Of a stretch of 58,605 bases of DNA, positions 29,735 through 54,480 are shown piece by piece; within the stretch, counting starts at the first letter, position 1; every line of letters starts with the position of its first letter. A program made the position numbers and the translations under genes. The notes under the pieces are model-generated. The model was not told the origin of the DNA and did no database searches. It worked only from the letters and a program-made list of their open reading frames with translations. The stretch is from an uncultured Saprospiraceae bacterium (GTDB lineage Bacteria > Bacteroidota > Bacteroidia > Chitinophagales > Saprospiraceae), in assembly GCA_964508975.1 (NCBI GenBank), contig CAZDVQ010000024.1:1-58605 (forward strand). Direction: 5' to 3'.

Positions 29735-29835
29735 AAGATAGCTGAAATTAGGTAAAGGGTAAAATGGGGTAAAAATGGGTGAAAATGGGTGAAAGGGGGC
29801 GAAGATGGGTGAAAGGGGGCTAAAAGCTAAAGATA
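29735..29835. repeat. degenerate short tandem repeat
   Basis: Three or four imperfect units of (a)aatgggtgaaa / gggtgaaagggggc, then gctaaag units. Lies between the DUF3109 start and the next GC-rich repeat. Confidence 0.5.
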
Positions 29836-29889: not shown

Positions 29890-30040
29890 GTTTAATCATT
29901 TCATCTTTTTGGGGCGCTGCGCCCGCCGGGGCGGTCGCCGTTACGCTACGGCGCTCGCTATTCGCTCGGCCCGCTACGCGGTCTGGCCCTGCGGGCCACG
30001 CCTCCGCATCACTAGCGCGAGGAAACGGCGGTTTTGTAGC
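29890..30040. repeat. GC-rich REP/MITE-like repeat at the boundary of low-GC island 1
   Basis: tttttggggcgctgcgcccgccggggcgg...cgctacggcgctcgctattcgctcggcccgctacgcgg...ggccacgcctccgcatcac. Confidence 0.8.
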
Positions 30041-30069
30041 TATGCAATATGAACAGGGATTGGTCAATA

Positions 30070-31677
30070 TCATTTATTCCTATTTAGCCTCCTTGCCGAA
30101 AGTTTCTTCCAAATACTATCTGCAAGTTTTATTTCTTTATCGGTAAAGCCATATCCGTCTTTTAGAATTTGCTTATTGGTGATTTTTAAAATTTCATCAA
30201 TGCTCTTTTTCTCTCGCATCATTTTATCAATGGTGGCAAGTAAATCTGCATTGTCGGTTTGGTAGGGAAGTAGTATTTTTTCTGCTTCACTTGGCATTAG
30301 TTCTAAAACACCACCGCCATAACTACGCCCAACAATTTCTGAAAACGCCAACGATAATGAATTGTAAAAACTGGCTATGAAAGCGTTTTTGTCCGTGTCT
30401 TTTTTCATAAATACACGGTGCATTGTGTCGGTTGTATATGCGTTTGCCGAATTCAGGATTAAACGGGGATAAAGATTGTTTCTACGGATAAACAAAGCAT
30501 CTGAAAGTTTGATGGAAGGAATGACAAACCAATCATCACGAATGCCTGTTTTGTAACCTTTGTTTATCCCCATTGATTCGCCCAAATGAATGTATGAGTT
30601 AGCTCCTTTGTGCCCATTGATTTTTTCTTTGGCTGGGAATACTAATAAATGGGCTTTTGCTTTGGTTTGCCTGTTTAGTTTCCAATCCTTTTCCGTAAAA
30701 ATTACGCTATTGACCTGAACACTTCTGCCAACCATTGGCTTTGCGTATTCTTTCAAATCGTAAGCTTCTACAACAGGCAAAGGAACGGTGAAGTAGTCAT
30801 TTGCACCTGTAGTGATACCAACTTCTACACTTGCGTAATTTCCTATTGTCGGAACTTTTCGTTTCCTGGCAATTTGTTCCAAAAAGTCAATTTCTTCTTG
30901 CTCTAAAAAGTAATAAGTCCATTTATTGGATTTGAAATCAATCTTTTTTGTCGGGCTTTTAAGTCGGGTTACATCCAAGCTTTCAAGGTCAGAAGCATCT
31001 TTTAATTCAAGGTGTTCAATTAAATGTGAATCGCTTCCGTTTCTTTCACAAAGCAACAAAACAACTTCTTGCTGAATGTCAGGGAATACCAACTTCTCAA
31101 AAGAAATAATGTTGATTTTATTGTAGAAATGAGCCAAAAATTCACGGAGTTGTTGAGCATAAGAAACCTGTAATAATTCCGCCGGAATTACAAAACCAAT
31201 CTTTCCTTTTTCTTTGAGCAACAAACTTGAACCAACTACAAAAGAAACCCATGCATTGGTCAACTTTGAATATTTTAGTTTAGCTCGATTGAAAACTTTA
31301 ATAGCTTCATTTTGCTGTTCTGCTTGAAAATATTGGTAACGAATGTAAGGCGGATTGCCTACCACTAAGTCAAATTTTTGTGTGGTTTCATTGCAATACA
31401 AATGAAAATCTGCATTAATTACAGTCTTGTTATCAATTTCAATTCTTTCCGCTTTTTCAGCTTCTACATCATCGAATTCAATAGCGGTTAGTGACTTGAA
31501 TTTATGTTTGTTATATTTAATTTGTTCAATAAAGACGCCATCACCACAACTTGGCTCTAAAATTTCATAATCGGAACTTCCATTGATACCCCATTTTAGA
31601 ATGAATGCAGCAATTGGCTCAGGTGTGTAAAATCCACCTCTCAATTTCTCGGCTGTCGCGTTTTTAATTAGCTTCAT
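30070..31677 (-). CDS. N6-adenine DNA methyltransferase (gamma-class), second methyltransferase of an Eco57I-like system
   Basis: 535 aa with motif I EPSCGDGVF and motif IV GNPPYIRYQ. Overlaps the upstream R-M fusion gene by 14 nt. Low GC. Confidence 0.85.
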   Translation of the reverse strand: MKLIKNATAEKLRGGFYTPEPIAAFILKWGINGSSDYEILEPSCGDGVFIEQIKYNKHKFKSLTAIEFDDVEAEKAERIEIDNKTVINADFHLYCNETTQKFDLVVGNPPYIRYQYFQAEQQNEAIKVFNRAKLKYSKLTNAWVSFVVGSSLLLKEKGKIGFVIPAELLQVSYAQQLREFLAHFYNKINIISFEKLVFPDIQQEVVLLLCERNGSDSHLIEHLELKDASDLESLDVTRLKSPTKKIDFKSNKWTYYFLEQEEIDFLEQIARKRKVPTIGNYASVEVGITTGANDYFTVPLPVVEAYDLKEYAKPMVGRSVQVNSVIFTEKDWKLNRQTKAKAHLLVFPAKEKINGHKGANSYIHLGESMGINKGYKTGIRDDWFVIPSIKLSDALFIRRNNLYPRLILNSANAYTTDTMHRVFMKKDTDKNAFIASFYNSLSLAFSEIVGRSYGGGVLELMPSEAEKILLPYQTDNADLLATIDKMMREKKSIDEILKITNKQILKDGYGFTDKEIKLADSIWKKLSARRLNRNK

Positions 31678-34651
31678 ACAACTCTTTGATTAATGGGATT
31701 AATGAGTCTTCAATACCTAAATCGTATAATTTAGCTAATAGCTTTTCTAAATCGGCCTTTACAGTAACGAACTGTCTACGTAGTGGAGTTAATGCTCTTA
31801 TGTTTCCTGCGTTAGCATCTATTTGGTCATAAATACTGATTAATTCTTTTTGGATTTCTACAATTTTGTCGTGTAGTGCATTTTGATTAGTATCAGAAAA
31901 GTCAATCTTACGAATTGGTAGATTTTTCAAAACCTTTGTTCCTCTTGCTATATAACCACCTCTGAAAACTTCACCATACAAAGCACTTAACCATTCCAAG
32001 TATTTAGAGTTGAGAATGGCTTGAATGTAGTAAATGGAGTAATCAGAAGTTGCTGGAATTGCAACTACACAATAACCTGCTGTCCCACCTGACGAAATCA
32101 AAGTTCCATGAACATCAATTGCGTATTTGTCACCAACGGAGAGAACGCCAACAATAATTTTTGAAGGTAGTCCGCAACTATCCAAACTTTGATGTCTACC
32201 GTATCTGTGCCATTCATTTTTTGTTTTTGGCTCTGGTTTTATATCTCGTTTTGAATTATTTAAAATGGCTTTATGCTTTTGCAAATAGTCATAAGCTAAA
32301 GGAAACTTCTTCCGAATTGTTGTTAGAGGAATGATATCAACCCCTGTTTTTGTTGTCAAATAAGGATAAATTACCCTGGCATTCGGTTTGAAAGTTCTGT
32401 AAGTATATAAATTATCTTCGCCTGAAGAAGTTTGAAAATATGGTTTTGTTAATTCTTTTTCAATTTTATAATTAATGCCTTTCTTTGTGAAATAAAAATG
32501 CTTCTTATCCTCTTTGTTTGGCGTGAAAATGTAAACTTCATTTGCACTGGTCTGAATACCATTGAAAATATTGTCGCTTCCAACCAAATCGTTAAGTTTT
32601 ATACTTTGAGAAATAATTTTATTGTAAGTGTTTGTTAATTCGGGTGGAACTAAAACCCAAACTTCACTATCCAATTCATCTGTTTTCTTTGAACCGTATT
32701 TTGCTGCTTCTGGTTCTCTAACTTTCCAACTTTTCAGGCTTCTTACTTCCGCATATCGGAAATTTTTTTGTGGCTTCTTACTCAGAATCAATAAGCAAGT
32801 GTAGGTTGATTTGTCCGCAAAAACTTGATTTGCACCAAATGAAACGATTGAATGTAAATACTCTTTGTCTGCGAGTAATTCACGAAGTTTTTTACCTGCA
32901 CCAACTTTTGTAAATTTGCTTGGAACGATATAACCTAAAATTCCGTCATCATTTAATAAGTTTATTCCTTGCTCAAGGAAAAGAAAGTATTTATCAAACT
33001 GCTTATAAGCCGAATCGTAATTGGTTTTGTAAAGTGGCAATTCAAGCGGAGTAATGTTTTTCATATCCTCCGATTTCATGTAAGGCGGATTGCCTACAAT
33101 GACATCAAAGCGAAGTTTTGAAAAATCAAACGGATTGATAATTACCTGATCTTTCTTGTTTGTTACTTGTTTCGGATTCAATAAACTGTTTCCGAAAAAA
33201 ATACTTTCTGAAAGGTCGGGTAAAACAGGTTTTGTCTTGTTGGTCGAATTTACATCTTCACCTTCAAGCAATTTGAGAAGTAAACCAAATTTTGTGGTTT
33301 CAACTGCATTATAATCTTTATCAACGCCATAGATACAGTTCAATAGAAGTTGATGCTTAATTTCAAACGGCAGTTTGAACGTGTTGATATTGGTTTGAAT
33401 GAGTTTAGATTTGTCGTTTTTTAGATAGTTATCAATCAAAATATCATTTAGCAACTGAAACAATTCCAATAAAAACGCTCCAGAACCACACGAAATATCA
33501 GCGAATTTTAGATTAAGAATTTCCTTGACTGTTTTCCCTTCGCATCTATTCAAAACTGTATTTCGTAAAATATCGTTTATAATGAAAGTCGGTGTAGTGA
33601 TAATATCACGGTCAACACTCTCCGGTTTCTTCACCAAAACAACAGAATCACTTTGAACGGTCAATTTTTCAGAAAGGAAAATTTCATAAATGCTTCCTAG
33701 TACATCAGAAGAAAAAACGCTGAATGAATAGGGGCTTTCAGGATAATACAATTGCTTGATGATAGCCCAAAATACCGAACTGATATTTTCTACAATCTTG
33801 TCTTTCAGCAATTGGTCAAAAAGTCCTGAATTATAGTGTTTATCTGCTTGTTCAAATTTCTTTATGAGTGCTTTGAAGTCGTTTGCGTTGGCAAATTTTA
33901 AAAGTGTTTGATAATCTTCTAAATTCCTGTCCTCACAAACACGCAGAAATAAGACCCTGTTCAAATAACTTTGAACAATATCATTAAGTTGTTGCTCGCC
34001 AATTTTGGGGTCGTGTTTGTAAATTTCAGCACCTAAAGCTTTTCTCCAATCATTAATTTGGTTTAGAAATAAGTTGTCAATCGAGTATTGATTGATTTTG
34101 CTTTCTATTTCTTTCCACTCCGTTTCAAATGCGCCTGAATAAACCGATTCCTTACCTAAAAGCTGTTTGATTTCCTCAAACTTGCTTTCAAATTCTGTAT
34201 AATGGTATTTTTTTACAAGTGCCTTTGCATTGTTGTCGTCCTTTTCAACTTTTACCGAAGTGTCGTAAATAATTAAGTATTCAAAATTTGAGAGAACAGA
34301 AATTTTCAATTTGGCTGTGAATCCGTATCGTCTTACTTGTTTTGCTGTGTCGTTGTTTGATTCAATAGAAACACAAGGTTTCTTGGCTTCCAAAAAGAAT
34401 TTTCTTTCAGAAAAAAGTCGGAAAGTATAGTCAGGTTTTTTTGAATGTTCAGAAGCGCTTGCCTTTAGTGCTTCTTCCAGAATTACTTCTCTTTCGTTGG
34501 TCGGTTTTCCTGCATTGTTTTTAATATCCCAACCAAGCAACTCGAAAAAAGGGTCTAAGAAATCACTGCGAAGCAGTGTTTCATTATACTTGCTTGTCAA
34601 GTAATAAGCCCTGTCGGCTGAATATTTTTCTATGAGTTGCTTAATTGTCAT
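31664..34651 (-). CDS. Type IIG restriction-modification enzyme (N-terminal PD-ExK nuclease, gamma-class m6A methyltransferase and target-recognition domain), Eco57I-like
   Basis: 995 aa. N-terminal nuclease motif KKPDYTFRLF...FFLEAKK (PD...ExK). Methyltransferase motif I DISCGSGAFLLE and motif IV VIVGNPPYMKSED, then a long C-terminal target-recognition region. The 995 + 535 aa pairing mirrors Eco57I as I recall it (997-aa R-M fusion plus 544-aa M.Eco57I). Confidence 0.85.
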   Translation of the reverse strand: MTIKQLIEKYSADRAYYLTSKYNETLLRSDFLDPFFELLGWDIKNNAGKPTNEREVILEEALKASASEHSKKPDYTFRLFSERKFFLEAKKPCVSIESNNDTAKQVRRYGFTAKLKISVLSNFEYLIIYDTSVKVEKDDNNAKALVKKYHYTEFESKFEEIKQLLGKESVYSGAFETEWKEIESKINQYSIDNLFLNQINDWRKALGAEIYKHDPKIGEQQLNDIVQSYLNRVLFLRVCEDRNLEDYQTLLKFANANDFKALIKKFEQADKHYNSGLFDQLLKDKIVENISSVFWAIIKQLYYPESPYSFSVFSSDVLGSIYEIFLSEKLTVQSDSVVLVKKPESVDRDIITTPTFIINDILRNTVLNRCEGKTVKEILNLKFADISCGSGAFLLELFQLLNDILIDNYLKNDKSKLIQTNINTFKLPFEIKHQLLLNCIYGVDKDYNAVETTKFGLLLKLLEGEDVNSTNKTKPVLPDLSESIFFGNSLLNPKQVTNKKDQVIINPFDFSKLRFDVIVGNPPYMKSEDMKNITPLELPLYKTNYDSAYKQFDKYFLFLEQGINLLNDDGILGYIVPSKFTKVGAGKKLRELLADKEYLHSIVSFGANQVFADKSTYTCLLILSKKPQKNFRYAEVRSLKSWKVREPEAAKYGSKKTDELDSEVWVLVPPELTNTYNKIISQSIKLNDLVGSDNIFNGIQTSANEVYIFTPNKEDKKHFYFTKKGINYKIEKELTKPYFQTSSGEDNLYTYRTFKPNARVIYPYLTTKTGVDIIPLTTIRKKFPLAYDYLQKHKAILNNSKRDIKPEPKTKNEWHRYGRHQSLDSCGLPSKIIVGVLSVGDKYAIDVHGTLISSGGTAGYCVVAIPATSDYSIYYIQAILNSKYLEWLSALYGEVFRGGYIARGTKVLKNLPIRKIDFSDTNQNALHDKIVEIQKELISIYDQIDANAGNIRALTPLRRQFVTVKADLEKLLAKLYDLGIEDSLIPLIKELYEAN

Positions 34652-34974
34652 TTCTTCTTATTGGCTTTAATGTATTTGGCTCTTTCCTCTGCTACTTTCA
34701 GAGCTTTTATTCCTAAATCTTCGTTTTGAATTTCATACAAAATCTTGTCGCTTAGGAATGAAACTAAAAGGTCATCTGCATCATAGTTGTATATGTTCGC
34801 AAGTTTCAGAACTACTTCTTTTGTAATTCTTCGTTCCCCTCGTTCCATCTTGCTCAAAATAGCAACATCAATGTCGAGCAAGGCAGCAACTTTTCTTAGA
34901 GGAAGTTCCTTTTCTTCTCGTATGTGTCTTAACTTTTCGCCTATTGTTTCCGTTGACATAACCTGTGTTGACAT
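34648..34974 (-). CDS. XRE-family HTH transcriptional regulator, putative R-M controller (C) protein
   Basis: 108 aa with HTH EKLRHIREEKELPLRKVAALLDIDVAILSKMERGER. Its stop overlaps the R-M gene start (ATGA). Confidence 0.7.
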   Translation of the reverse strand: MSTQVMSTETIGEKLRHIREEKELPLRKVAALLDIDVAILSKMERGERRITKEVVLKLANIYNYDADDLLVSFLSDKILYEIQNEDLGIKALKVAEERAKYIKANKKK

Positions 34975-34990
34975 AAAGTGTCAAAATTAG
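34950..34990 (-). promoter_or_regulatory. putative controller-protein operator overlapping the HTH gene start
   Basis: Direct 10-bp repeat GTTGACATAA at 34952-34961 and 34967-34976, each covering one of the two in-frame ATGs (MSTQVMSTE). Palindrome TTGACAtaaagTGTCAA at 34968-34984. Confidence 0.4.
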
Positions 34991-35129
34991 AATATATTTT
35001 TGATTCGTTCCCATTTAATTTAATTTTTTTTAAACATCCTTGTCAATCGTTGGAAAATTGGCTCTTATGCAAATCTTAGGTTATTGGTTGGTTTGAGAAG
35101 TTTTGTAAATGTGTCACCAAATGCAATGG

Positions 35130-37445
35130 CTAATATTTCGATTGTTTTAAAAAGTCTTTTAGTTTAATCGTCGTTATGCCAAAACCCTTGCATTTAAGCT
35201 GTATGCCATTGTCTGATGTCAACATAATAGGGTTTTCTTTTTTGTATTTAAGTGCAACTGTCAAAATAAAATTATCTGGCGATTTTTTGTCAAAGTCACT
35301 TGGCAACAAAGTCAGGTCGGCTATATCCATTTTGATATTCCGTTTGTCAAAACTGTCGTTGATTTGTTTGATTGCTTTTTGAACATTTTGTTTTTGTTGT
35401 TCTGTTTGCAGCGTTACTTTCAGTTTGTCCAACTCGTCAATGACTTTTGCAGATAAGACTATTTTATACTGTTTGTCAATTTTTGAAATTATGTCGGGCT
35501 GGTCAACAAATACGTTAGTGTCAATAATATAAATATTTTCCCTCCCATTAACGATTTCTTTCTTAGGCTTTTCAAATTGGGAAAGGTCTATTTTGCCAAG
35601 AACCTTTAATCCTGTTTGACTTTCTAATTTTTCTTCATCCTCAGGTGTATTTGATTCTGTCGTTTTGCTTTCAATTAGTTTTTTTTCAGTGGTATAATAA
35701 AACGAATATTCTTCATTTAATTTTTCAAGATAAGTTTTAACATATTTATTTAATTGAAAATCGGAACTGATAATATCCTTGTCTGCAATTATGATTGTAT
35801 GACGTTTTGAACGGCTTGTCGCAACATTGAACAAACGCTTTTCTAATGAATGATTGTAGCCTGAATTTGGAATTACCAAAATGGTTACGTCTGTGGTAAG
35901 ACCTTGTATTCTTGCTACTGTTTCAATCAATAAATTTTCATGGTTGTCAATTGATCCGTAAATGCTTTTTTGTAATGCCTTTACTGTCTCAATGTAATTG
36001 CTTAAAACAGAGATGTGCAATTTTTCTTCGACAGTCAGTAGATGAGTAACTAACAGCTTTGCTATTGCCGATGCGTTTACAGGCTTTTTACTTCCAACTT
36101 CCAAATCTGTTTTAATAAGCGTTGAACCGCCCTCCGGATTGAAAAATACGTTCACTTCATTAGTCATTTCAGGAAATGAAAGTCGTATGTCTGATTTTGA
36201 TTTTGATTTTAAACTGTTATTGTAGAACAATCCTGTGTAATAAGAACCTCTGTTTGGCAAACGATATGTTTCTGTAAGTTGATAAATCGGAACAGCAGAA
36301 GTATCTGCAAGAGCTTTCAATCCCTCCACTAAAATCTCATAATTCTTTTTACCTACTTTATCATCACTGATTGCAATAACTGGAGGCAACTGCATTGTGT
36401 CACCAATCCAAATATTTTTCTGCCCTAAAAGTTTTGCTGCACCAAACATTGCAAGTAACGCCTGGCTTGCTTCGTCAACTAATACATAGTCAAAAGGCGG
36501 TGTATTCGCAATCTTAGTTGCTTCGGTGCTTGCTATAAAAAAGGTGGATAAAACTAACTTGCCTGGTTGTGGATTTATATCCTTTGTCGGTTGTAATCTT
36601 GGAATTTCTTTGGCTTCATCTGTTGATATTTTGGTTTTAAAAACTTTACCCTCATCTAGAATAGTTGCTAATGCTGGTTTTTCAACGACTTCAATTAACG
36701 CTCTATTTGTAAGCGATGTAACTAAAACGGATTTTCCTTGCTCACATAAAAGTTTACAGATTTCAGCTATTTGATAGGTTTTTCCTGTGCCAGGAGGTCC
36801 TATCAAAACAACGTTATCGGATAATGTTAATTGATTTAATATGAAATTTGGTATATCATTTTTTTCATCAAGTAATGAAGGTTCCCCATTGGTTTTTAAA
36901 AAGTCTTGGTCTAAAATTGAACTTACTGCTTCAGAGTAGTTATTCTTAACTATTTTTTGTAAATTCTCTATATACCCATAGGGTGGGACATTCGGGCCTA
37001 AAAGCAATATAATTTTTTCCGCTTTTGAAATATTTACCGAAAAATCCAATTCAACACCACGAAAACCTGCGATGTAAAAGTCTTTATCAAGATTCCCGTC
37101 CTTGTCTTTTGACGGAGCTTGCCAAACGCAAACAGTTTCAGTAAAATTTCCTTTTTCTTTTATTAAGTCGCCATACGTTTTCTTACCCCAATTTCTGTAA
37201 TCTCTCAACTCTTTTGGAACAGTAAAACAATACAAATACTCGCCTTTGCGCGGTAAGCCACGTTTAGTTGAGAATTTTAAGATCATTTCTCCGTCTTTGA
37301 AAGTCAAAAATTGAGCAACAAAAAGCTCTTCCCTTTCTTGAAGCAAAAACGTAGCGGAAGTATTTAACTTTTGGTTAAATGCTTTCGTTTGTGCTTGAAG
37401 TTCTTCCTCAAGAAAGTTGCAGTGTTCTTGTCTAGTATATTTCAT
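35130..37445 (-). CDS. Upf1/DNA2-like SF1 helicase fused to a C-terminal PIN-domain nuclease (candidate defence effector)
   Basis: 771 aa. Walker A LIGPPGTGKTYQ, motif II DYVLVDEASQ, arginine finger/motif VI NVATSRSKRHTIII. C-terminal roughly 150 aa is a PIN fold with acidic residues in IYIIDTNVFVD, IDELDKL and TSDNG. The ATG at 37445 directly abuts the TAA of the upstream gene. Confidence 0.8.
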   Translation of the reverse strand: MKYTRQEHCNFLEEELQAQTKAFNQKLNTSATFLLQEREELFVAQFLTFKDGEMILKFSTKRGLPRKGEYLYCFTVPKELRDYRNWGKKTYGDLIKEKGNFTETVCVWQAPSKDKDGNLDKDFYIAGFRGVELDFSVNISKAEKIILLLGPNVPPYGYIENLQKIVKNNYSEAVSSILDQDFLKTNGEPSLLDEKNDIPNFILNQLTLSDNVVLIGPPGTGKTYQIAEICKLLCEQGKSVLVTSLTNRALIEVVEKPALATILDEGKVFKTKISTDEAKEIPRLQPTKDINPQPGKLVLSTFFIASTEATKIANTPPFDYVLVDEASQALLAMFGAAKLLGQKNIWIGDTMQLPPVIAISDDKVGKKNYEILVEGLKALADTSAVPIYQLTETYRLPNRGSYYTGLFYNNSLKSKSKSDIRLSFPEMTNEVNVFFNPEGGSTLIKTDLEVGSKKPVNASAIAKLLVTHLLTVEEKLHISVLSNYIETVKALQKSIYGSIDNHENLLIETVARIQGLTTDVTILVIPNSGYNHSLEKRLFNVATSRSKRHTIIIADKDIISSDFQLNKYVKTYLEKLNEEYSFYYTTEKKLIESKTTESNTPEDEEKLESQTGLKVLGKIDLSQFEKPKKEIVNGRENIYIIDTNVFVDQPDIISKIDKQYKIVLSAKVIDELDKLKVTLQTEQQKQNVQKAIKQINDSFDKRNIKMDIADLTLLPSDFDKKSPDNFILTVALKYKKENPIMLTSDNGIQLKCKGFGITTIKLKDFLKQSKY

Positions 37446-40400
37446 TTACAATAATTCTTCATCATCACCAGTTAATTCTTCTTCGTTTCTTCTTTCGTCG
37501 AAACGGTAATCGCTTAAATCTTTGGCTATGCTATAATCGCTCGGATTTACACTATTAAAATCAAAGTGGACGTTGCCGAAGTAATGAAGCAATTCGGCAA
37601 ATTTATCTAATCTGTCCTCTACATCAAGATTTTCTGTGCTAAAACTAATAGTAAGCTTATCCTGATTTCTCAATAAATCATATAATTTTAAGCATCCTAA
37701 TTTCCTGTTTCCAAAATGTAACCAAAACATTGAATTTGGTTTCATTAGTTGTATCCATTCGTTTGCTCCAATTTTTAAAGGCTCGTCTTCATATTTGTAA
37801 CTTTTTACAACAATCGGAAATTCAACATTATCTTTATAAACACCGTCAATTGTTGAGAACTTGCCTATTCCTTCAGTAAATTCAAATCCTTCTCTTTCTA
37901 ATTTTTCCTTGACAATTTCTTTTGCTTCTCGGTTAGCTTCTTTTTGGTCGTTTTTAGAAATGTCTGTGCTAAATTCACTTCCTAATGTAGCGTCGCTTGA
38001 TCTTCTTAATTGTGCGTTTTCTTTTTCTAATATTTCTAATTTGTTTTGCCACAATCCGTCAAAATTAAAATCGTTATACTCCTCCAATTCTAATTTTCTT
38101 AGTTCTTTTTTTACATCTGCGTTTTGATTTATGTAAATATTGTTTTTATCATCAACTGCGGTATTGCCTTCAAAAAAAGAATAGAACACATAATCTTCAA
38201 TTTCATTAAGTGAAATTGTTTTAGGTAATTCGCCTTCGTATAGAAAAATAGCAACATTAGAATCCTTTTTCCAATTTTCATAATATGATTCTTCCCACAC
38301 TAATGCGTTCTCTTCTAACTCTTCAACATCCAAATCCTCTTTAATTTCTAAATCTCCATTGTTGGTTCTGTTTTCATTGATAACTTCAACTACTTTCTTA
38401 AATGTTTCAAATTGTTCCGCTGTTTTGAATGTAACTTCGTTTTCTTTAAGCCAAACCAACGAATTGAATAGGTTTAATTCACCTTCGTTAAAACGTGTTT
38501 CTTGTGACAAACGATTGTTTTGAAAATCTTTTATTTTACCGCTTAAATATTTTCGCAATACAACAATGACAGAGCTTTCTGTCCACACGCCCAAGTCAGA
38601 AAGGAAATCAATTTTGGCATCTTCTTCACCAAGCCATTCTATTAGATAATCAGGTAGTAGTTCACTTTCACAAGCGTATTTACTTGGATAAACGGATGTT
38701 GTTGGATTGAATCCTAAAATGTTTTCAGTTTTTACATCATCAATTGTATTCCAATCAATATTTTTGATTGACGTCTTTTTACTTTTCTTATTCCACTGAT
38801 TGAATAAAAACTCTATAAGACTTAGTTTCTGCTCATCTGATAAATTTTCTTCAATGTACGGACAAATGAATTTAGCGTCTTCAAAATAAGGTTCTTTAAT
38901 GAGCAATAAATTATCATTGTCTTCTACTACAACAGGAAAGTCTTTGAATATTTTAGAAATACTTCTGTATTTTTTATGAAGTATTTCGGATTGCTGTATA
39001 AAATCAAAGTCCGTTAAATATTTATCTGTTCCCAGTTCTATTTCTTCTTCATTTACGTTTAGGGCATTAAACTGATTAAAATTTATTTTTTCAATATACA
39101 AACCGTAAAGAAACAAAAATGCTAATTGTTCGGCATTTTCCAATGTTTCAACTTGTTCAGAAAACATTTCATAAATGACGCTTGGTTCAGGTTCTTCACT
39201 TACGCCAAACAAATTCCCAATTCGCTCTTTGTTCAAACCAAGTCCAATAAAATGATTTATCAAACTGCTTAAATAGTCGCTGTTTTCGTAATTGTCTGGG
39301 AGAATTTTAGCAAGACTTATTTCATAATTATCAATTTTAATTTTATCCGTGAAGGGTGGAATTTCAGAAAGTTTTAAATCTTGATTTTCCGTTTCAATGA
39401 CAACTTTTTCTTTGAATTTTAGATAATCGTTTTCTTTCAGTTCACTACAAGCTAAATCTAAAATTTTATACTCGTAATCCTCCCTAGAGTATTCATTTTT
39501 AGAATTAAATCTGAACTCTGATAGTTGTTGTAAAAACTTGTGTTTGGCTTTATATTTTACTATATCCACAAGTATTTCTTTGTGTTCATCTGCATCAACA
39601 AATTCCAAAATCAAACCGTGCAAATCATCGGCTTTTATTATACCTTCTTCGTCCTTGTAGTTTTCCACAAACTCATAAGGAAGAACAAATAAATTGTCAG
39701 CACAATTTTCATCTAAAAATTTTCTTGCTTCCTTATCGGCTGATTGAACCTGATAGGTTTCGCTTGTTTTTTTATCGATTATAAAGTCTTTATTCTCTTT
39801 TTTAATTATGAACTCTTTGAAGAATGATTTTTGATTGTCTTGATAAAGATTAATAAGCGATTTAATTTCCTCTGCTGTTGTTAATTCAGCAATTATATCA
39901 TCTTGATTTTGTTGGTAAATTTCTTTGAAAATATTCCCTGAATCTAAAATCAGGTAGGGGTAGAGTTCAGCAAAGTATTCATCTTGTTTTATTTTGTGTG
40001 CGTTTAACCAACTTGGCGTTTTAATATTACCTATAAGTTCGCTTAGTGGTTTTATTTCTGAATTATTATTGCAAAATAATTCTAAGTTTTTTAATGTGCC
40101 TTCAGCAACATTATCAAACTTTGTTGTTTCGTTAATAAAACTGAGAAATAAAGTTTTCTTTTCTTTGGCTGACAAGGTGTTAGTTTTGCATTTTTCAGCA
40201 ATATAAGTGTACATCTGTTTTTCGTCAGGCATTATTTCAATACAAGAAAAAATGTTTGGATATTCAGAAGTAGTAATTTCAGATACAATGATTCCAATTT
40301 TGTCAAGCTCTTCTACGATGCCTATTGTTTTTTGTATTTTGAAAAAAACATTAGCAAAACCATAACTAGCGATAGTTCTATTTTGTGAGATTTGTTTTTT

Positions 40401-42128
40401 TACTATTTCATTGAACGAATAGAACTCGTCATTGGAAAATTTAAAAAGTTTGATTTGAGAAAGTTTCTCTTTAGTTTCCTTGCGCAAATAACTTTCTTCT
40501 AATTCATCTAAAAATGATTCATAAGTTTTTTTATCACAAGTAGCAATCCAATTATTTATACTTACCAGATTGGCATTTTCTACAATATCTCTGATGTCCC
40601 ATTCTTTAAGGCCCAATTTTTCTGTTTTGGTTGCTTCGTTAATCAACAATTTATCTACCTCACTATCCCACTCAAACCATTGAATATGGTTCAATCCTAA
40701 TTCCGATAAGTTTATAGAGAGTTTGAGCTTATTAATTTTTACGTTTTGAGCGTTGTCAGAAAAACCAATTTTGGTTGGTATATTTTCAGATAGGTATTGA
40801 TGAATGAAATTTGAAAAACTATTACTTATATGAGGCTTGTTTTTGGGGTCTTTCGACAGTAGAAAGTTAGAGTACAAAGACAAAAACAAATTACGGTTAT
40901 TTTCTTTCTGTATATCTGAATACTTAATTACGTTTTGTGCAATTAAGGGCAAAAGCTTTTCGTTGATTTGAGAATTAGCTTGAAGTTTACGCCTGTCATT
41001 ATTCATGTCAAAGGCATTGCAATGCAACAAAAAACTAAAACCATTCTTTTCTTCGTCCATAGAAAAGAACGTGTAAAGATTTGGTGCTAATTCATTTTGT
41101 AAATCAACAGCCTTTTTGTAATCATGATAAAATGCAAATGTGAATTTTATGTCCCGATTTTTATTTTTTGGATTTATGTCTTTGAATTCATTACTGCCAA
41201 TAGGAAAAGAATCTGAATAATCCAAAACAGCTTTTGCTTTGATTTCTTCGTCATTGATGTATATTTTTTGCAAGCTGTTCAAAAATTTGAAAGAATATGA
41301 CAATCCACTTTTAATTTTATCGATACCCTCATCAAGAAATTTGCTTTTACCCTTACCTAGTTTGAGAAAGAAGATTGAGCCGCTTTTTAAATTGTTTGTT
41401 TCTTTCAGATTTACGTTTTGCAGTGAATGTTTTAAAAATGTCCTCATTTCGGACAATTCGTTTTTTGAAAACCTTATGCCTTCTGTATCGTAGTTTTGCA
41501 ATTTTAATTTTTCGTCCAAATGAGAAGGAAAACAAGTGTAAAGCAATTTTATAAGCCAAGGATTTTCGCTATCCTTTGTTACGTCGAAGCCTACTTTGAT
41601 TTCATCTTCCTTTAGAAATGCATCTAATTGAAAAAATTTATTCCAGCTAAAAATGATTGGCCCTGCATAATCGTTTATTATAGCTTCTCTTCCATCATCA
41701 GCACCAACTAATCTGTGTAAAATTTTGAAGCCAATACCAAATGTGCCAATATCTTCTCCATCTTTGTAGTTGCCAGCAACATTGATGATTGCGGACATGT
41801 CACGGTCTGAAAAATAATTCCCATTGTTTATGCAGAGTAAATAGTCCTCATTGTAGCTCACGCTAAAAAAAGACGATTTACAATCGTCAGCGTTTTGAAT
41901 AAGTTCATATATGGCTTGGTCGTCTGCGGCTACGTTTAAAGCAATTGTTCCTAGTAGTTTTCCTAAATCTTCCCTATTACCATAAATCAGTTTTGAAAAT
42001 CCAGTTTCTCTACGTTTTCTGTCGGGATGTAATGAACCCACAAAGTTGAGGTCTATATAACCACTTTCTCTCGCAACTTCTTCTTTGTAGAATCTACGAA
42101 AATAAAAAGCATTTCTTGTGTATAACAT
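37446..42128 (-). CDS. giant sacsin/Hsp90-like GHKL ATPase with C-terminal DUF3883/PD-(D/E)xK-like domain (candidate defence protein)
   Basis: The ORF track starts on TTG at 42197; the first ATG is at 42128 (MLYTRNAF). GHKL N-box AIYELIQNADDC and G2 box GTFGIGFKILHR. About 1200 aa of low-GC helical middle region. The C-terminal segment GFEFTEGIGKFSTIDGVYKDNVEFPIVVKSYKY fits a DUF3883/restriction-endonuclease-like D...E.K core. Confidence 0.8.
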   Translation of the reverse strand: MLYTRNAFYFRRFYKEEVARESGYIDLNFVGSLHPDRKRRETGFSKLIYGNREDLGKLLGTIALNVAADDQAIYELIQNADDCKSSFFSVSYNEDYLLCINNGNYFSDRDMSAIINVAGNYKDGEDIGTFGIGFKILHRLVGADDGREAIINDYAGPIIFSWNKFFQLDAFLKEDEIKVGFDVTKDSENPWLIKLLYTCFPSHLDEKLKLQNYDTEGIRFSKNELSEMRTFLKHSLQNVNLKETNNLKSGSIFFLKLGKGKSKFLDEGIDKIKSGLSYSFKFLNSLQKIYINDEEIKAKAVLDYSDSFPIGSNEFKDINPKNKNRDIKFTFAFYHDYKKAVDLQNELAPNLYTFFSMDEEKNGFSFLLHCNAFDMNNDRRKLQANSQINEKLLPLIAQNVIKYSDIQKENNRNLFLSLYSNFLLSKDPKNKPHISNSFSNFIHQYLSENIPTKIGFSDNAQNVKINKLKLSINLSELGLNHIQWFEWDSEVDKLLINEATKTEKLGLKEWDIRDIVENANLVSINNWIATCDKKTYESFLDELEESYLRKETKEKLSQIKLFKFSNDEFYSFNEIVKKQISQNRTIASYGFANVFFKIQKTIGIVEELDKIGIIVSEITTSEYPNIFSCIEIMPDEKQMYTYIAEKCKTNTLSAKEKKTLFLSFINETTKFDNVAEGTLKNLELFCNNNSEIKPLSELIGNIKTPSWLNAHKIKQDEYFAELYPYLILDSGNIFKEIYQQNQDDIIAELTTAEEIKSLINLYQDNQKSFFKEFIIKKENKDFIIDKKTSETYQVQSADKEARKFLDENCADNLFVLPYEFVENYKDEEGIIKADDLHGLILEFVDADEHKEILVDIVKYKAKHKFLQQLSEFRFNSKNEYSREDYEYKILDLACSELKENDYLKFKEKVVIETENQDLKLSEIPPFTDKIKIDNYEISLAKILPDNYENSDYLSSLINHFIGLGLNKERIGNLFGVSEEPEPSVIYEMFSEQVETLENAEQLAFLFLYGLYIEKINFNQFNALNVNEEEIELGTDKYLTDFDFIQQSEILHKKYRSISKIFKDFPVVVEDNDNLLLIKEPYFEDAKFICPYIEENLSDEQKLSLIEFLFNQWNKKSKKTSIKNIDWNTIDDVKTENILGFNPTTSVYPSKYACESELLPDYLIEWLGEEDAKIDFLSDLGVWTESSVIVVLRKYLSGKIKDFQNNRLSQETRFNEGELNLFNSLVWLKENEVTFKTAEQFETFKKVVEVINENRTNNGDLEIKEDLDVEELEENALVWEESYYENWKKDSNVAIFLYEGELPKTISLNEIEDYVFYSFFEGNTAVDDKNNIYINQNADVKKELRKLELEEYNDFNFDGLWQNKLEILEKENAQLRRSSDATLGSEFSTDISKNDQKEANREAKEIVKEKLEREGFEFTEGIGKFSTIDGVYKDNVEFPIVVKSYKYEDEPLKIGANEWIQLMKPNSMFWLHFGNRKLGCLKLYDLLRNQDKLTISFSTENLDVEDRLDKFAELLHYFGNVHFDFNSVNPSDYSIAKDLSDYRFDERRNEEELTGDDEELL

Positions 42129-42496
42129 TATATTTTTATTTTTTGGAATTGATGATGTGTCCGCAATGCGGTTGTGACACAAGTAAATGTGTTGCAACGG
42201 TGTCGGCTAATGCATTGGTTTTCAAATCTTTTGATTTTGTGAAGTCTTGGCATTTTGTCTGTTGTATTACTGTTTGTTTTTGTTGTGTCGTCTTTTAGCA
42301 TCACAACCAACCTCCCCGCAGCCACAACTCCCCTGGCTTTATAGTGTCACTATTCAGGTTTAATGAATAGAACAAGTAGCTAGTACCCGTGTGTGTTGTG
42401 TTACAACGAATGATAGGTCCTGTGCAAAGGTATTGAAAATATGCTAATCTCAGTAATTTTTATCATCAATTTATAGGGCATTTTACGTGCTTTGGG

Positions 42497-42711: not shown

Positions 42712-42848
42712 CAAACCATCGCCAGTACACGATTCGGCTTAGCTGCCTGTAGGGCGCCGCCGCAGGCGGCGGTGCGCGTAGCGCACGGAGCGAATAGCGA
42801 ACCCCGGAAGGGAGCGGCCCGCGCAGCGGGAAAGCCCCAAAAAAGAGC
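42712..42848. repeat. GC-rich REP/MITE-like repeat at the other boundary of island 1
   Basis: ccatcgccagtacacgattcggcttagctgcctgtagggcgccgccgcaggcggcgg...cggagcgaatagcgaaccccggaagg...aaagccccaaaaaag. Confidence 0.8.
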
Positions 42849-48919: not shown

Positions 48920-50350
48920 CTAGTCCTCGCGACTACCGTCAGCAGCCATACGCACCATTTTTGGTTGGAACATGGCCACCACGTCAACCAGCTCGGTTTG
49001 CGCTTGCATCACCTCGTGGATGTTTTTGTAGGCCATCGGTGCCTCGTCGAGACCACCGCCAATCAAGGTTACGCCGTGTAGTTTCAACTCGTCGCGCAGG
49101 GCTTGCTTGGTCCCAGCCTTGATGGCCTTGGTTCGGCTCATCTGTCGACCAGCGCCGTGCGAGGCTGATTGCAACGCGCTTTCAACTCCTTTTCCGCGCA
49201 CCAAGAAGCCTGGTGCCGTCATGCTACCTGGGATAATACCCATCACGCCTTTGGCGGCAGGGGTTGCTCCTTTACGGTGTACAATCACTTCCTCGCCGTT
49301 CCAGATCTCTTTCCAGGCGAAGTTATGGTGGTTTTCTACCTTGGCCAACACGTGGCCACCGATGGCTGCCGTCAGTTTTCGGTGGATGACCTCGTGGCAG
49401 GCCGAGGCGTAATCGCCAGCCAGGTTCATGGCCAACCAGTACTCCATACCTTCTTGGCTATCCAGCGACAAGTACGCTAGGTTTTGGGCTTCTTGCGGCA
49501 ATTTACACAGGCTCTTGGCCAACTTGGTGTAATGCCCGGCAATGGTTGCCCCGAAACCGCGTGAACCAGAGTGGGTCAACAAAGCCACGTATCGGCCTTT
49601 TGGTATACCCAGGACCTCGTCGGCCTGGGCAAACTCAATGATGCCCCACTCCACGAAATGGTTTCCACCACCCGAGCTCCCCAGTTGGGAATAAGCCTTA
49701 TCACGCAGGTTTTTCACGAAAGGGTTGATGTTGAACAAGTCGTTTTCCAGCACGGCATGGTCGCTCTTGTACTGTGGTTTAAAGCCATGTCCAGCGCCAA
49801 ACAAGCTATGGGCAATCAACTCGCGTTTGTACTTGGCCTCGTTTTCCAAGAAATGGCTTTCCGGGATATCGTAGATACTCAAGGCCATTCGGCAACCGAT
49901 GTCCACGCCCACGCCGTAAGGTATAATCGCATTCCGGGTAGCCAACACCCCGCCGATAGGCAGGCCGTAGCCCTGGTGGGCATCTGGCATCAAGGCCCCG
50001 GCCACGGTAACGGGTAGTTTCATGGCGGTTTTCATCTGTAGGTGGGCGCCTTCCTCGATATGTTCGGTCCCGAACACGGCGTACTCGGCAGGGTTTTCCA
50101 ACAGCTCGATACAGGCATCGGCTTCGGCTTGCTCGGCGATATCCAATAGGCAGCGGGCTACTTGGTTAAAGTATTCCATATCCAAGAAATCGGCTGGGTT
50201 TTCCAGCACTTGTTGCAGGGTTTGCAGCAAGATCTCGGCTGGCATATGCGGCAAGTGTTGCTCGGCGATTTGCAAGGCAATACCGATGGCCTTGTTCTCG
50301 GCATAGCCGAGGGCGAGGAGATGTTCTCCGCCTATAATATTATTTTTCAT
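48920..50350 (-). CDS. rtcB: RNA-splicing ligase RtcB
   Basis: 476 aa with metal/GTP-binding motifs DAHQGYG, GVDIGCRM, HSGSRGFG and NHHNFAW, and the catalytic His in SHGAGR. Confidence 0.9.
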   Translation of the reverse strand: MKNNIIGGEHLLALGYAENKAIGIALQIAEQHLPHMPAEILLQTLQQVLENPADFLDMEYFNQVARCLLDIAEQAEADACIELLENPAEYAVFGTEHIEEGAHLQMKTAMKLPVTVAGALMPDAHQGYGLPIGGVLATRNAIIPYGVGVDIGCRMALSIYDIPESHFLENEAKYKRELIAHSLFGAGHGFKPQYKSDHAVLENDLFNINPFVKNLRDKAYSQLGSSGGGNHFVEWGIIEFAQADEVLGIPKGRYVALLTHSGSRGFGATIAGHYTKLAKSLCKLPQEAQNLAYLSLDSQEGMEYWLAMNLAGDYASACHEVIHRKLTAAIGGHVLAKVENHHNFAWKEIWNGEEVIVHRKGATPAAKGVMGIIPGSMTAPGFLVRGKGVESALQSASHGAGRQMSRTKAIKAGTKQALRDELKLHGVTLIGGGLDEAPMAYKNIHEVMQAQTELVDVVAMFQPKMVRMAADGSRED

Positions 50351-51035
50351 AGTATGGATTTAACTCCACAAAAGTCAATTTTACTAATAATTTTAAAAAT
50401 TCAAAGGACTTTTGCGTAAATTCATTCACAAAGCCTTGTGATGTTATTTGATAAGACCTATGAACACCAGGTTTTCCATCTAATAAGCAATGATAGTTTG
50501 AATTCAAAAGAATTCCATCCAGTTTTTGTAGGAATGATTCGAAGTTGTCCTGTTTTGCGCTGAAATAAAAACTACCCATGGGATAATGGGCAAATTGGTT
50601 TCTCAGTATTCTAAATAGGTATATTTGAGTTCGTAATGACTGAAATTCCTGGGATAAATTTACATCTTTAAGCAGATTATTCATGGCATCTTCTGGGCTT
50701 GAATAAGTTACAATTTCTGTGGGCTCTAAATTTTTGCACCTCCATTGGTAATGAAAAAGTATGTTGTTTATAGAATTATCTAATAGAATAGTCAATTCAA
50801 TCAATGCGTTTTTAAACATTATAGAGTGAGTTATGCTTTCTACCCCTGCTTTCTTTTCCAATGAATTATTTATAATGCATTCGCTAGCAAAAGAATAAAT
50901 ATTAATCACATTGTTCACACCCGCAGCATATTCTTGAGGGAGTCCATGCACTAAATTATCCCAAAAATTCTTGCCAAGCTTGTCATTTGTGGTTATTGAT
51001 GAAAATAATATTGAATGCCTTTTCCTTTTATTCAT
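50340..51035 (-). CDS. hypothetical protein with an RNxxAH HEPN-like motif (possible Abi/HEPN RNase)
   Basis: 231 aa, low GC, overlaps the rtcB start by 11 nt. Motif LFRILRNQFAHY fits R-x4-H, as in Abi_2/DUF4145-type HEPN domains. Confidence 0.5.
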   Translation of the reverse strand: MNKRKRHSILFSSITTNDKLGKNFWDNLVHGLPQEYAAGVNNVINIYSFASECIINNSLEKKAGVESITHSIMFKNALIELTILLDNSINNILFHYQWRCKNLEPTEIVTYSSPEDAMNNLLKDVNLSQEFQSLRTQIYLFRILRNQFAHYPMGSFYFSAKQDNFESFLQKLDGILLNSNYHCLLDGKPGVHRSYQITSQGFVNEFTQKSFEFLKLLVKLTFVELNPYYEK

Positions 51036-51083
51036 GATGGAGTAATATTAATTATTCGGAATACTAAAATATGTTTCAAAAAA

Positions 51084-51944
51084 CTATTCACGGTCTTTCA
51101 TCCAAACCCAGGAAGTGTAATCGTTCGAGCTCGCACGCGGGGAAATTTCATCTAATTCATAGGTGCCATCTTCTTGCAAAACATTAATCAATAGAGGCCC
51201 ATCTATTGCCTTACGCAAGTAAATATTACCATAAAATTCAAAATACTGCAATAGGTAATCATGGACAAGCAGCGTTTTATGAATTATTTCAGCCCATTGC
51301 TTAAACGAAAGGCTGTAAACGGAATCGAGATTTTCCTTAGCATTTCCATATCCAATATTATTACCCATGAAAAAGTATTGAGAGTGTGCAATCGAGTTTC
51401 GAATTTGCGTATTGTAGATATCTTTAACTAGCTTTGAAAATTTCGGACAAGAAACCTCTGTAGGCTTAATAATTTTTTCTAAGATGAAAGAGCTTCTCCT
51501 ATAAAGTTCCCTTGAGAGATCGTTCCATCTATAATTTTTATGATTAGCTAAATTGATAAGTTGATGAATTTTTTTTAAGGTCATTTCGGATTCCCAAAAT
51601 TTCAGGTAAATTTGTTTTTCAATGTTGATGGAATAGAGTTCTGTATTTTTCAGTTTTGTATCTAATTGGGCCTGCACTTCAAACTCTTCCATCGTTCCAG
51701 GAAGTTTGTAAGCCTCTCGGTGGAGTATTAAAAATTGATTTACGGTGGACTCGCAGTGCCCTATTATATCAGGTCCCAAGCAACGCTTAGTCTCTCCGTT
51801 TGCATCTTTTTGAAAACATGCATGGGCAATAACTAGCAGTAAATCCTGCTCATGCTTTTGGTTCTGAAAAGCATTTTTAAATAGTTCTTCAACAGCTTGA
51901 CCTACTTCGTCTCTGTATTCCTTAACAATTTCATCAAAAATCAT
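51084..51944 (-). CDS. hypothetical protein with an RNxxAH HEPN-like motif (paralog-like to the 50340-51035 gene)
   Basis: 286 aa, low GC. Motif NTQIRNSIAHSQY has the same RN..AH pattern as its neighbour. Confidence 0.5.
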   Translation of the reverse strand: MIFDEIVKEYRDEVGQAVEELFKNAFQNQKHEQDLLLVIAHACFQKDANGETKRCLGPDIIGHCESTVNQFLILHREAYKLPGTMEEFEVQAQLDTKLKNTELYSINIEKQIYLKFWESEMTLKKIHQLINLANHKNYRWNDLSRELYRRSSFILEKIIKPTEVSCPKFSKLVKDIYNTQIRNSIAHSQYFFMGNNIGYGNAKENLDSVYSLSFKQWAEIIHKTLLVHDYLLQYFEFYGNIYLRKAIDGPLLINVLQEDGTYELDEISPRASSNDYTSWVWMKDRE

Positions 51945-52023
51945 GATTTGAGATTTAGAAGATTATTAGATTTTTTAGTTTTAAACTGGAATTTACATCA
52001 AGATTTAGCCATGATGATAGTGC

Positions 52024-52944
52024 TTAGCTTTTTTTATGAGGTGTAGATATTTTAACAGTTGTTTTTATTTGAACAATTCCTTTGTTAATAGAATTGCTTT
52101 TCTCTATTACGTCCTTGCCAAAAATGGGTACTTCAACAGGTAAATTTGCTTTCACATCTTTTTCAAATTTCAAAGATAGTCTCCGGAAATTGATTAAACT
52201 ATATATCAACTCCGAGCAAAACAACGTCATTTTATAATCCCTTTCATGGTTTTGAATTTTTGTCACAACACTCAGTTCATCTTTTTTAGATCCTTTTGTG
52301 TAGAAAGACATTGAGTCTTCTAGGTTAACATTCATAAGTGGTTTAACGGTCTTAGGATCGACAAATGTAACTTTAGAAAACATCGGTACAATTCTAAGTC
52401 CATGTTTATAAGAATTGTACTCTGTTCGATCTGAAAAGTCTTTGGCGAGAATAGTAATACCATATTTTATGGCGCCAATGCTTTCCAAAATATCTTTAAT
52501 AAATTCTTTATTATTAAATATGCCCATATAGAACAAATAATGTCCAACGGTAACGTGATGTCCTTGAAAGTTTATTTTTTTATCTAGAAAATTTAGAATT
52601 TCAGGATTTTCCGCTATCCGATTTATGAAGGCGTAATTCTTCTGCCAATTAGAATTTGTAATATTGAAAAGAATATTTTTATCATCAAAACTTTCCTTTC
52701 CATCAGGATTGAGCGCAAACAGTAGCTCAAAAAAACTTTCAATAGCATGAAAGTAATTTTGGCGAAGTTCGCTTTTGAGGGTTCTACGAATAGAATCTCT
52801 ATCTTCATCAGAAGTATCCTCTCCAAAGAACTCTTTTAGATAGTTTTCCTCTAGTCCAGCTATCATTTTGTTTAAATAAGTAGCTTTGTACTTGTGGTAC
52901 TTAGAAATGTAAGATTGGTAAAATAATTCTGGCTCAAAATACAT
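52024..52944 (-). CDS. hypothetical protein (low-GC island gene)
   Basis: 306 aa with ATG start, coding-like periodicity, no TM segments. Contains ELRQNYFHAIE (R-x4-H), but this could be coincidental. Confidence 0.45.
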   Translation of the reverse strand: MYFEPELFYQSYISKYHKYKATYLNKMIAGLEENYLKEFFGEDTSDEDRDSIRRTLKSELRQNYFHAIESFFELLFALNPDGKESFDDKNILFNITNSNWQKNYAFINRIAENPEILNFLDKKINFQGHHVTVGHYLFYMGIFNNKEFIKDILESIGAIKYGITILAKDFSDRTEYNSYKHGLRIVPMFSKVTFVDPKTVKPLMNVNLEDSMSFYTKGSKKDELSVVTKIQNHERDYKMTLFCSELIYSLINFRRLSLKFEKDVKANLPVEVPIFGKDVIEKSNSINKGIVQIKTTVKISTPHKKS

Positions 52945-54357: not shown

Positions 54358-54480
54358 GGATGATTTGGGCACCCCGCCGCTACGCGGCGGCGGTCCCCTA
54401 CGTGCTCGCTATTCGCTCGGCCCCTGGCGGGGCTGGCCGCTACGCGGCCACACTCCGGGCACCTGGCGCAGCATCATCTT
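54358..54480. repeat. GC-rich REP/MITE-like repeat, most canonical copy
   Basis: tttgggcaccccgccgctacgcggcggcggtcccctacgtgctcgctattcgctcggcccctggcggggctggccgctacgcggccacactccgggcacctggcgc. Reverse complement of 55236-55352 at better than 85% identity. Confidence 0.85.

Follow-up and report, generated by a model that had tools for sequence, protein, structure and literature searches.

The window analysed here, the whole 58,605 nt of contig CAZDVQ010000024.1 from an uncultured Saprospiraceae bacterium (GCA_964508975.1), contains two large minus-strand genes, termed gene A and gene B, which probably form a two-gene variant of Tiamat, reportedly an anti-phage system of Millman et al. 2022. In the variant, a helicase, with or without a PIN nuclease domain, would replace the NOV_C nuclease domain that is built into many members of the family of TmtA, the defining Tiamat protein. 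Gene A was found to match the PADLOC model PDLC03970 (TmtA) with an E-value of 0 and 1141 bits, so the module is not unassigned. This overturns the view of the initial annotation, which had connected the pair to no named system. Its suggestion of a previously undescribed system holds in part: the locus appears to be an overlooked two-gene variant of a known family and not a wholly new system. PADLOC assigned gene A to a known system but gave no whole-length system match for gene B.

Gene A and gene B

Residues 4-753 of gene A aligned to positions 3-733 of PDLC03970 and its C-terminal 684 amino acids (aa) to positions 950-1537. These matches strongly indicate that gene A encodes a full-length member of TmtA, the protein that defines Tiamat. 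The open reading frame (ORF; 37446..42197, minus strand) comprises 1583 aa when counted from a TTG codon. The ATG at 42128, used by public gene callers, is the likely start and gives 1560 aa, and a public record holds this exact 1560-aa protein.

The N-terminus of gene A carries a sacsin-type GHKL (Bergerat) ATPase domain, in agreement with the initial annotation. NCBIfam NF047352 (sacsin ATP-binding domain) matched aa 71-140 (2.9e-16) and Pfam SACS (PF25794) matched at 1.8e-8. Across 57 aligned members of the family the ExxxNxxD N-box (E75, N79, D82) and the GxxGxG box (G128, G131, G133) were invariant, as were Q78, F134 and K135 of gene A. The GHKL domain is followed by a long helical body, which is common to gene A and catalogued TmtA.

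The TAA stop of gene A (37446-37448) directly abuts the ATG of gene B (37443-37445) with no spacer, confirming two large, adjoining minus-strand ORFs of 1560 and 771 aa. Gene B had been described as an Upf1-like superfamily 1B (SF1B) helicase with a C-terminal PIN domain, and both assignments were borne out. Its helicase region matched Pfam AAA_11, AAA_12, AAA_19 and AAA_30, and the closest solved structures were those of IGHMBP2 (9.5e-12), DNA2 (1.2e-7) and UPF1 (1.4e-4). The superfamily 1 (SF1) helicase motifs were invariant across 25 partner proteins, that is, gene-B homologues encoded downstream of TmtA. PIN_4 (PF13638) matched gene B at 4.5e-19 when the whole protein was searched and at 2.9e-20 with the isolated fragment. 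All four acidic residues of the PIN domain were kept in 12/12 PIN-bearing partners. Moreover, identity in the PIN domain was 64-91% even with the helicase region (aa 1-600) at only 30-36%.

The first 200 residues of gene B had no Pfam match, and a profile search against PDB sequences gave none. From their pattern they may form the helix and beta-barrel that precede Upf1-like cores. An AlphaFold model of gene B made from an alignment of 82-88%-identical sequences had a predicted local distance difference test (pLDDT) score of 32.9 and was unusable.

Searches with gene B returned 2375 homologues, the best 120 of which were 82-88% identical to it. Those among the best 120 that carry a taxon name belong to varied Bacteroidota, and many of the 120 sit on contigs of ~7 kb. 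Neither the plasmid collection nor IMG/VR yielded relatives of gene B, and the phage collection gave a single match of 67 residues in one unannotated phage record.

Linkage of TmtA to the helicase

A scan of genomes with a TmtA profile gave 80 loci, in which ORFs were called and classified with hidden Markov models purpose-built for the analysis. Most loci came from Bacteroidota. Phycisphaerales, Gammaproteobacteria and Oscillospiraceae were represented by single metagenome-assembled genomes (MAGs), and three loci were cyanobacterial. A gene-B homologue lay downstream on the same strand at 25 of the 80 TmtA loci, in line with the operon-like coupling and conservation of the gene pair that had been anticipated. 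At 24 of these 25 the partner frame started between -40 and +12 nt from the TmtA stop, and the tightly linked partners were 25-82% identical to gene B. The locus outside this range, L076 (15073-17443, from a Prolixibacteraceae MAG), is a four-gene operon variant with two paralogous ~400-aa genes between TmtA and the helicase, their stops and starts overlapping.

TmtA and a helicase also occur as a single protein. At locus L062 the two form one fused gene, so that among 60 informative genome loci the helicase was a separate gene in 25 and a fusion in 1. A HMMER scan with gene A residues 1-1200 yielded 453 clusters and 103 near-full-length representatives, 15 of which join a complete TmtA and an MkoA-like SF1 helicase in one natural fusion protein. 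Judged from their sequences, the fusions support a link at the level of the family, not one-to-one orthology. As direct orthologues of gene B they were rejected, given that phmmer with gene B matched one fused representative only, and weakly.

Linkage differed sharply between TmtA proteins with different C-termini. Only loci with a complete TmtA and sufficient downstream sequence were compared. A gene-B homologue lay downstream of 16/17 TmtA genes with the 'AC190'-type C-terminus found in the window, of 6/6 with the 'CL019' type and of 3/4 with other C-termini at a length of 1,400-1,810 aa. By contrast, none of the nine TmtA genes of the NOV_C type (examples of which were confirmed by Pfam) was followed by such a gene. 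NOV_C and the helicase are thus mutually exclusive in this set, the helicase accompanying 0/9 NOV_C TmtAs and 25/27 other TmtAs of 1,400-1,810 aa (Fisher p=5.8e-7). A long class of TmtA (1820-1940 aa) had no gene-B homologue downstream in 20 loci. This class (L059-L096) is a large clade drawn chiefly from Saprospiraceae, Aureispira and Cytophagales. Its one scored member, L059, had a PDLC03970 score of 1484 bits, the highest in the analysis.

We also examined 16 metagenome loci fetched via two close gene-B homologues. TmtA lay directly upstream of the helicase-PIN gene in all 16, with a gap of 2-3 nt. Its length was 1315 or 1572 aa in 15 loci, the remaining copy being cut by the contig end. 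The 16 loci represent at least five defence-island contexts unrelated to one another, with surroundings that include BREX/PglZ together with prokaryotic Argonaute (pAgo), an integrase with HerA and a type I restriction-modification (R-M) set, GmrSD, BrxL and a sulfate transporter. In blastn comparisons, positions 35059-42298 of the window were 81.6% identical to loci L009-L016 over 7.3 kb. Compared with one another, L009-L016 contain a sharply bordered 7.5-kb cassette that is 99.9% identical and stands in differing contexts. By these comparisons the cassette is a compact, highly mobile 7.2-kb unit.

As an alternative, gene A and gene B could be two independent neighbouring single-gene defences, a Tiamat (A) beside a stand-alone helicase-PIN protein of the Mokosh or Nhi kind (B). 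Catalogues list Tiamat as one gene, defence genes tend to cluster, and helicase-nuclease defences made of a single protein are known, as in Mokosh type II. Gene B also partly matches two Mokosh proteins: MkoA (PDLC03920) matched its helicase core with 87.6 bits (1.6e-25) at model positions 771-1099 of 1112 only, and the best-scoring stretch of MkoC was model positions 670-714 of 1136. Independent neighbours nevertheless sit poorly with gene-B homologues that begin directly after TmtA (-40 to +12 nt) in 24 diverse loci, with their absence beside the NOV_C-type TmtAs, with cassette borders that enclose exactly both genes, with the natural fusions and with an upstream TmtA in 16/16 loci that were fetched through two close gene-B homologues. 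We consider this explanation distinctly unlikely.

The cassette appears to be modular. Loci L001-L008 pair an 83%-identical helicase-PIN protein with a TmtA of another subfamily (PDLC03967, 1315 aa), which is strongly similar to gene A solely in its last ~170 aa. Across 26 pairs, similarity of the TmtA C-terminal domain followed that of the helicase (Spearman 0.88, p=4e-9), whilst similarity of the TmtA body did not (rho 0.34, p=0.09). Since the C-terminal domain tracks the helicase, the body does not and the PIN domain stays 64-91% identical, the architecture behaves, as far as these similarities can tell, as if built from three interchangeable blocks, namely the TmtA body, the unit of C-terminal domain and helicase, and the PIN domain. 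In L001-L008 (3853-5922) the PDLC03967-type TmtA and the helicase-PIN gene directly follow a Piwi-domain (pAgo) gene and a PglZ/SNF2 set, and are followed by a HipA/HipB pair and an SNase gene, forming a dense defence island.

The C-terminal domain of gene A differs from the one that ends many catalogued TmtAs. A NOV_C-type domain terminates PADLOC models PDLC03964, 03965 and 03972. The NOV_C-type TmtAs of the genome loci have the motif YDFEI...VD[AS]K, and Pfam NOV_C (PF13020) matched the TmtAs of L018, L043, L046, L048 and L081 at 5e-7 to 3e-15. In gene A the same Pfam model gave no match even at E<=10. The fold of the AC190 domain is PD-(D/E)xK-like, but the canonical D and (D/E)xK acids are missing: in the alignment the beta-2 Asp position varies, with residues that include D, N, Y, S and H, and a hydrophobic residue fills the position of the (D/E)xK acid in all sequences. 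An alpha-1 Glu, a beta-3 Lys/Arg and the Glu of 'NEW' are kept. The earlier reading of the gene A C-terminus as DUF3883/PD-(D/E)xK thus stands for the fold and falls for a recognisable DUF3883 and the canonical catalytic acids. The alignment was built from a search with the 190-aa C-terminal domain, whose 14 matches were mostly gene fragments and insufficient for a census. As a strict marker of helicase linkage AC190 was rejected, as L049 and six long-class TmtAs have the domain and no helicase.

Several observations weigh against a straightforward replacement of NOV_C by gene B. Only 11 of the 25 partners carry PIN, with 11 ending directly past the helicase and 3 having another C-terminal domain. 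Because about half of the partners do without PIN, it is not a universal effector, and a hand-over of the nuclease to gene B is an incomplete idea. No conserved third gene was found after the PIN-less helicases. The long-class TmtAs have neither NOV_C nor a partner, with a weak AC190-like domain in 6/20, and the fused helicases are no more than remote relatives of gene B. That C-terminal domain and helicase are inherited together may be due in part to their physical adjacency on the DNA. The structure model of the C-terminal domain was of modest confidence (pLDDT 59), and the conserved Glu, Lys/Arg and Glu suggest that AC190 might be a nuclease with a rearranged site.

In that case TmtA itself would be the nuclease effector, acting through a non-canonical C-terminal site, with the helicase as an accessory motor that feeds it substrate and with PIN as an optional part. 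The frequency of PIN-less partners with no replacement gene is consistent with this, as is the conservation of the alpha-1 Glu, the beta-3 Lys/Arg and the following Glu. Relocated catalytic acids are known in the PD-(D/E)xK fold, for example in Cfr10I. HmaA, in which NOV_C is a defence nuclease, provides a precedent for the pairing of a helicase with NOV_C (PMC11232893). Such a role is harder to reconcile with the variable beta-2 Asp position, with a hydrophobic residue in place of the (D/E)xK acid throughout the alignment and with a domain that Pfam NOV_C does not detect. It also leaves aside the very strong conservation of PIN where PIN is present. We regard a nuclease role of TmtA as doubtful and favour the two-gene variant of Tiamat, in which NOV_C would have given way to a degenerate domain of similar fold and a Upf1-like helicase, here carrying PIN, would stand in for it.

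Island context, leader and repeats

The initial annotation had placed the genes in an AT-rich block between flanks of roughly 50% guanine-cytosine (GC) content. Composition agreed with this: the GC fraction was 0.320 in the cassette and 0.331 in the island at 30000-42300, against 0.481 in the remainder of the window. The island is flanked by housekeeping genes: SurA-like and DUF3109 genes at one end, a TolC/HlyD-type efflux pair at the opposite end. The genes downstream of the cassette encode a helix-turn-helix (HTH) controller, a Type IIG R-M enzyme that matched PDLC03604 with E=0, and a methyltransferase that matched PDLC03267. This R-M system is a mere neighbour outside the conserved unit, since the cassette ends 71 bp past gene B and occurs elsewhere without that system. 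No tRNA genes were found in the window and none flank the cassette. Rfam likewise gave no match in the window at the families' gathering scores, and none flanking the cassette.

Coordinates of the cassette and its parts in the window
Feature	Position	Strand	Basis
Cassette (leader, gene A, gene B and 71-bp tail)	35059..42298	-	blastn borders; GC 0.320
Conserved 5' leader of the cassette with imperfect hairpin	42129..42298	-	DNA comparison
Gene A, TmtA (Tiamat family), 1560 aa + stop	37446..42128	-	PADLOC PDLC03970
Sacsin-type GHKL (Bergerat) ATPase domain of gene A, aa ~60-165	41634..41951	-	NCBIfam, Pfam, 57-sequence alignment
N-box ELIQNADDC	41880-41906	-	Gene A GHKL domain
G-box GTFGIGFK	41724-41747	-	Gene A GHKL domain
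Gene A C-terminal ~170-aa 'AC190'-type domain, then acidic tail	37449..37955	-	PD-(D/E)xK-like fold
Gene B, helicase-PIN fusion, 771 aa + stop	35130..37445	-	ATG start; ORF, Pfam, homologues
Gene B N-terminal domain, aa 1-200	36846..37445	-	Conserved across 18 partners
SF1B Upf1/IGHMBP2-like helicase core, aa ~201-580	35706..36845	-	Pfam, PDB matches
Walker A GPPGTGKT	36777-36800	-	Gene B helicase core
Motif II VDEASQ	36462-36479	-	Gene B helicase core
Motif VI ATSRSKRH	35799-35822	-	Gene B helicase core
PIN_4 nuclease domain, aa 639-762, acidic tetrad intact (IIDTN, DELD, SPDNF, TSDN)	35160..35531	-	PF13638

Related loci also lie among defence genes, which upholds the defence-island context proposed for the window. 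Neighbours across loci include BREX/PglZ, pAgo, GmrSD, BrxL, type I and III R-M, Septu and OLD-family genes. At 21 of the 24 paired loci, 100 neighbouring ORFs had PADLOC matches, which were spread over 375 families with at most 3 ORFs each. This pattern indicates that the pair resides in defence islands and has no fixed third component.

We also considered whether the pair might not be an immune system at all, acting instead as a selfish addiction or stabilisation element, or as a DNA-repair or RNA-quality-control module hitch-hiking in islands. High mobility, with 99.9%-identical copies in different contexts, could be read in the first way, and a GHKL protein with an SF1 helicase follows mismatch-repair logic. 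Yet the name of the TmtA family comes from a phage-defence screen, PADLOC includes the family (PDLC03964-03972), and the neighbours are overwhelmingly defence genes. A patchy distribution driven by horizontal transfer, together with low GC, is unlike that of housekeeping repair genes, and the cassette encloses no recombinase or antitoxin-like partner. A non-immune role thus appears very improbable.

The 5' leader of the cassette has copies elsewhere. Copies of ~150 nt, 74-94% identical, precede TmtA genes whose proteins are only ~32-50% identical, and they also precede other defence genes, such as hsdM in L009. They lie at 1949-2141 and 13779-13926 in L009, 5249-5397 in L033, 7262-7394 in L038 and 9778-9918 in L057. 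The leader core, AAATGCCAACGCTTCAGCAAAATCAAAAGAGCTGCA-N22-TGCAGCACATTTGCTTTTGCCC, forms an imperfect hairpin with one AU/UA covarying pair, and no Rfam family matches the leader. It may be a shared promoter or operator, a structure of the 5' untranslated region, or a recombination site at the cassette junction.

The AT-rich island lies between two mutually inverted copies of a GC-rich repeat of ~55 nt (…GCGCTCGCTATTCGCTCGGCCCGC…), at 29926-29980 and 42775-42829. Further copies occur at 6787-6810 and 54402-54425, one of them ~1.5 kb from a second AT-rich block. The inverted pair was rejected as terminal repeats of the island, as the copies at 6787 and 54402 make it a dispersed repeat. It looks like a dispersed intergenic repeat of the repetitive extragenic palindromic (REP) kind and may mark hotspots of island insertion. 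Just left of the island, an intergenic stretch at 29754-29823 holds a degenerate 10-nt tandem repeat, (AAATGGGTGA)n.

The second low-GC block (50340-52944, GC 0.324) contains three consecutive minus-strand ORFs of 231, 286 and 306 aa, none with a Pfam match. Its neighbours are an RtcB ligase gene on one side and an SPFH/Band-7 gene on the other, and the block may represent a further small island gained by horizontal transfer.

Proposed mechanism and relation to known systems

Tiamat is found across many genomes and reviews give its mechanism as unknown. One survey classes it among single-gene PD-(D/E)xK systems. Gene A resembles catalogued members in being a high-scoring, full-length TmtA with the same sacsin-type GHKL N-terminus and a defence-island habitat. 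Unlike the catalogued system, which consists of one gene, it is abutted by a helicase-PIN gene. Many members end in a NOV_C/DUF3883 nuclease domain, whereas gene A has no NOV_C and the canonical acids are absent. The locus thus departs from catalogued Tiamat in two features: it has a second gene and it has no NOV_C nuclease. Neither the full texts searched, an incomplete coverage of the literature, nor the PADLOC models yielded a description of the linkage between TmtA and the helicase.

In the mechanism we propose, TmtA would act as a sensor or clamp, driven by ATP, that detects a cue of infection, and its C-terminal domain, possibly together with the acidic tail, would couple it to the helicase. 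The helicase would move 5' to 3' on phage single-stranded nucleic acid, which the PIN domain would cut. A GHKL-SF1 pairing of this kind would be analogous to the activation of UvrD (SF1 helicase) by MutL (GHKL) in mismatch repair. We infer that the helicase-linked subfamily acts in defence and that the products of gene A and gene B interact physically and divide the labour between them, on either RNA or DNA.

Several known systems combine some of these parts. Mokosh, like gene B, joins an Upf1-like (COG1112) SF1 helicase to a nuclease, either in a single protein (type II, MkoC) or as MkoA with MkoB (type I), and both its helicase ATP site and its nuclease site are required for defence. By contrast, Mokosh uses a PLD-family nuclease and has no GHKL partner, and MkoA of type I adds a kinase domain. 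A PLD domain was found in neither gene A nor gene B, the nuclease of the latter being PIN_4. Gene B as a whole matched no PADLOC system, its helicase core alone matching MkoA, and no Nhi model was among its PADLOC matches at E<=0.01.

MORC and paraMORC operons likewise bring together a GHKL ATPase, a helicase and a nuclease on nucleic acid. These triads were compared with MutL-UvrD and described in R-M and defence neighbourhoods (Iyer, Abhiman & Aravind 2008, PMC2292703). They employ SF2 helicases and a MORC-type GHKL+S5, whereas the locus described here has a sacsin/NO VEIN-type GHKL and an SF1B Upf1-like helicase, and the gene A protein is four to five times larger. In VcSduA (GHKL-Shedu, formerly paraMORC3) the GHKL domain and the PD-(D/E)xK nuclease are both required for defence (PMC12137116). 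Unlike the present pair, GHKL-Shedu is a single protein of ~600 aa with a DUF4263 nuclease and no helicase partner. For DUF4263/Shedu, neither gene had a Pfam match or a PADLOC match at E<=0.01.

Eukaryotic proteins offer further parallels. Arabidopsis NO VEIN and animal sacsin carry the same sacsin-type GHKL module according to Pfam and NCBIfam, although their roles are developmental or those of a chaperone. NO VEIN is also the namesake of the NOV_C domain that ends stand-alone TmtAs and that gene A does not have. The PIN domain and ATPase of PhoH2, and the pairing of an Upf1-family helicase with a PIN_4-type endonuclease in UPF1-SMG6, resemble gene B. UPF1 and SMG6 are separate eukaryotic proteins that act on mRNA in response to ribosome-linked cues, and the likeness is one of domain logic only. 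A more far-reaching proposal, unlikely on present evidence, is that helicase-linked Tiamat provides RNA-surveillance immunity. The GHKL sensor would load the Upf1-like helicase-PIN RNase onto phage transcripts or replication intermediates, with TmtA bodies serving as swappable specificity modules that plug into a constant effector unit of C-terminal domain, helicase and PIN. If true, this would be a prokaryotic counterpart of the UPF1-SMG6 pairing in nonsense-mediated decay.

For the Tiamat family, a two-gene variant would have consequences for annotation. Rules of the PADLOC type would call the locus a complete single-gene Tiamat and ignore its partner. The 7.2-kb cassette is also a tractable test object, because its three blocks have already been swapped in nature. 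Since linkage to an Upf1-like helicase, which holds for a large share of the TmtA family, alternates with the NOV_C nuclease, a nucleic-acid-targeting mechanism built on a partnership of GHKL ATPase and SF1 helicase is suggested, which gives a mechanistic lead for Tiamat, a system that every defence-system census lists.

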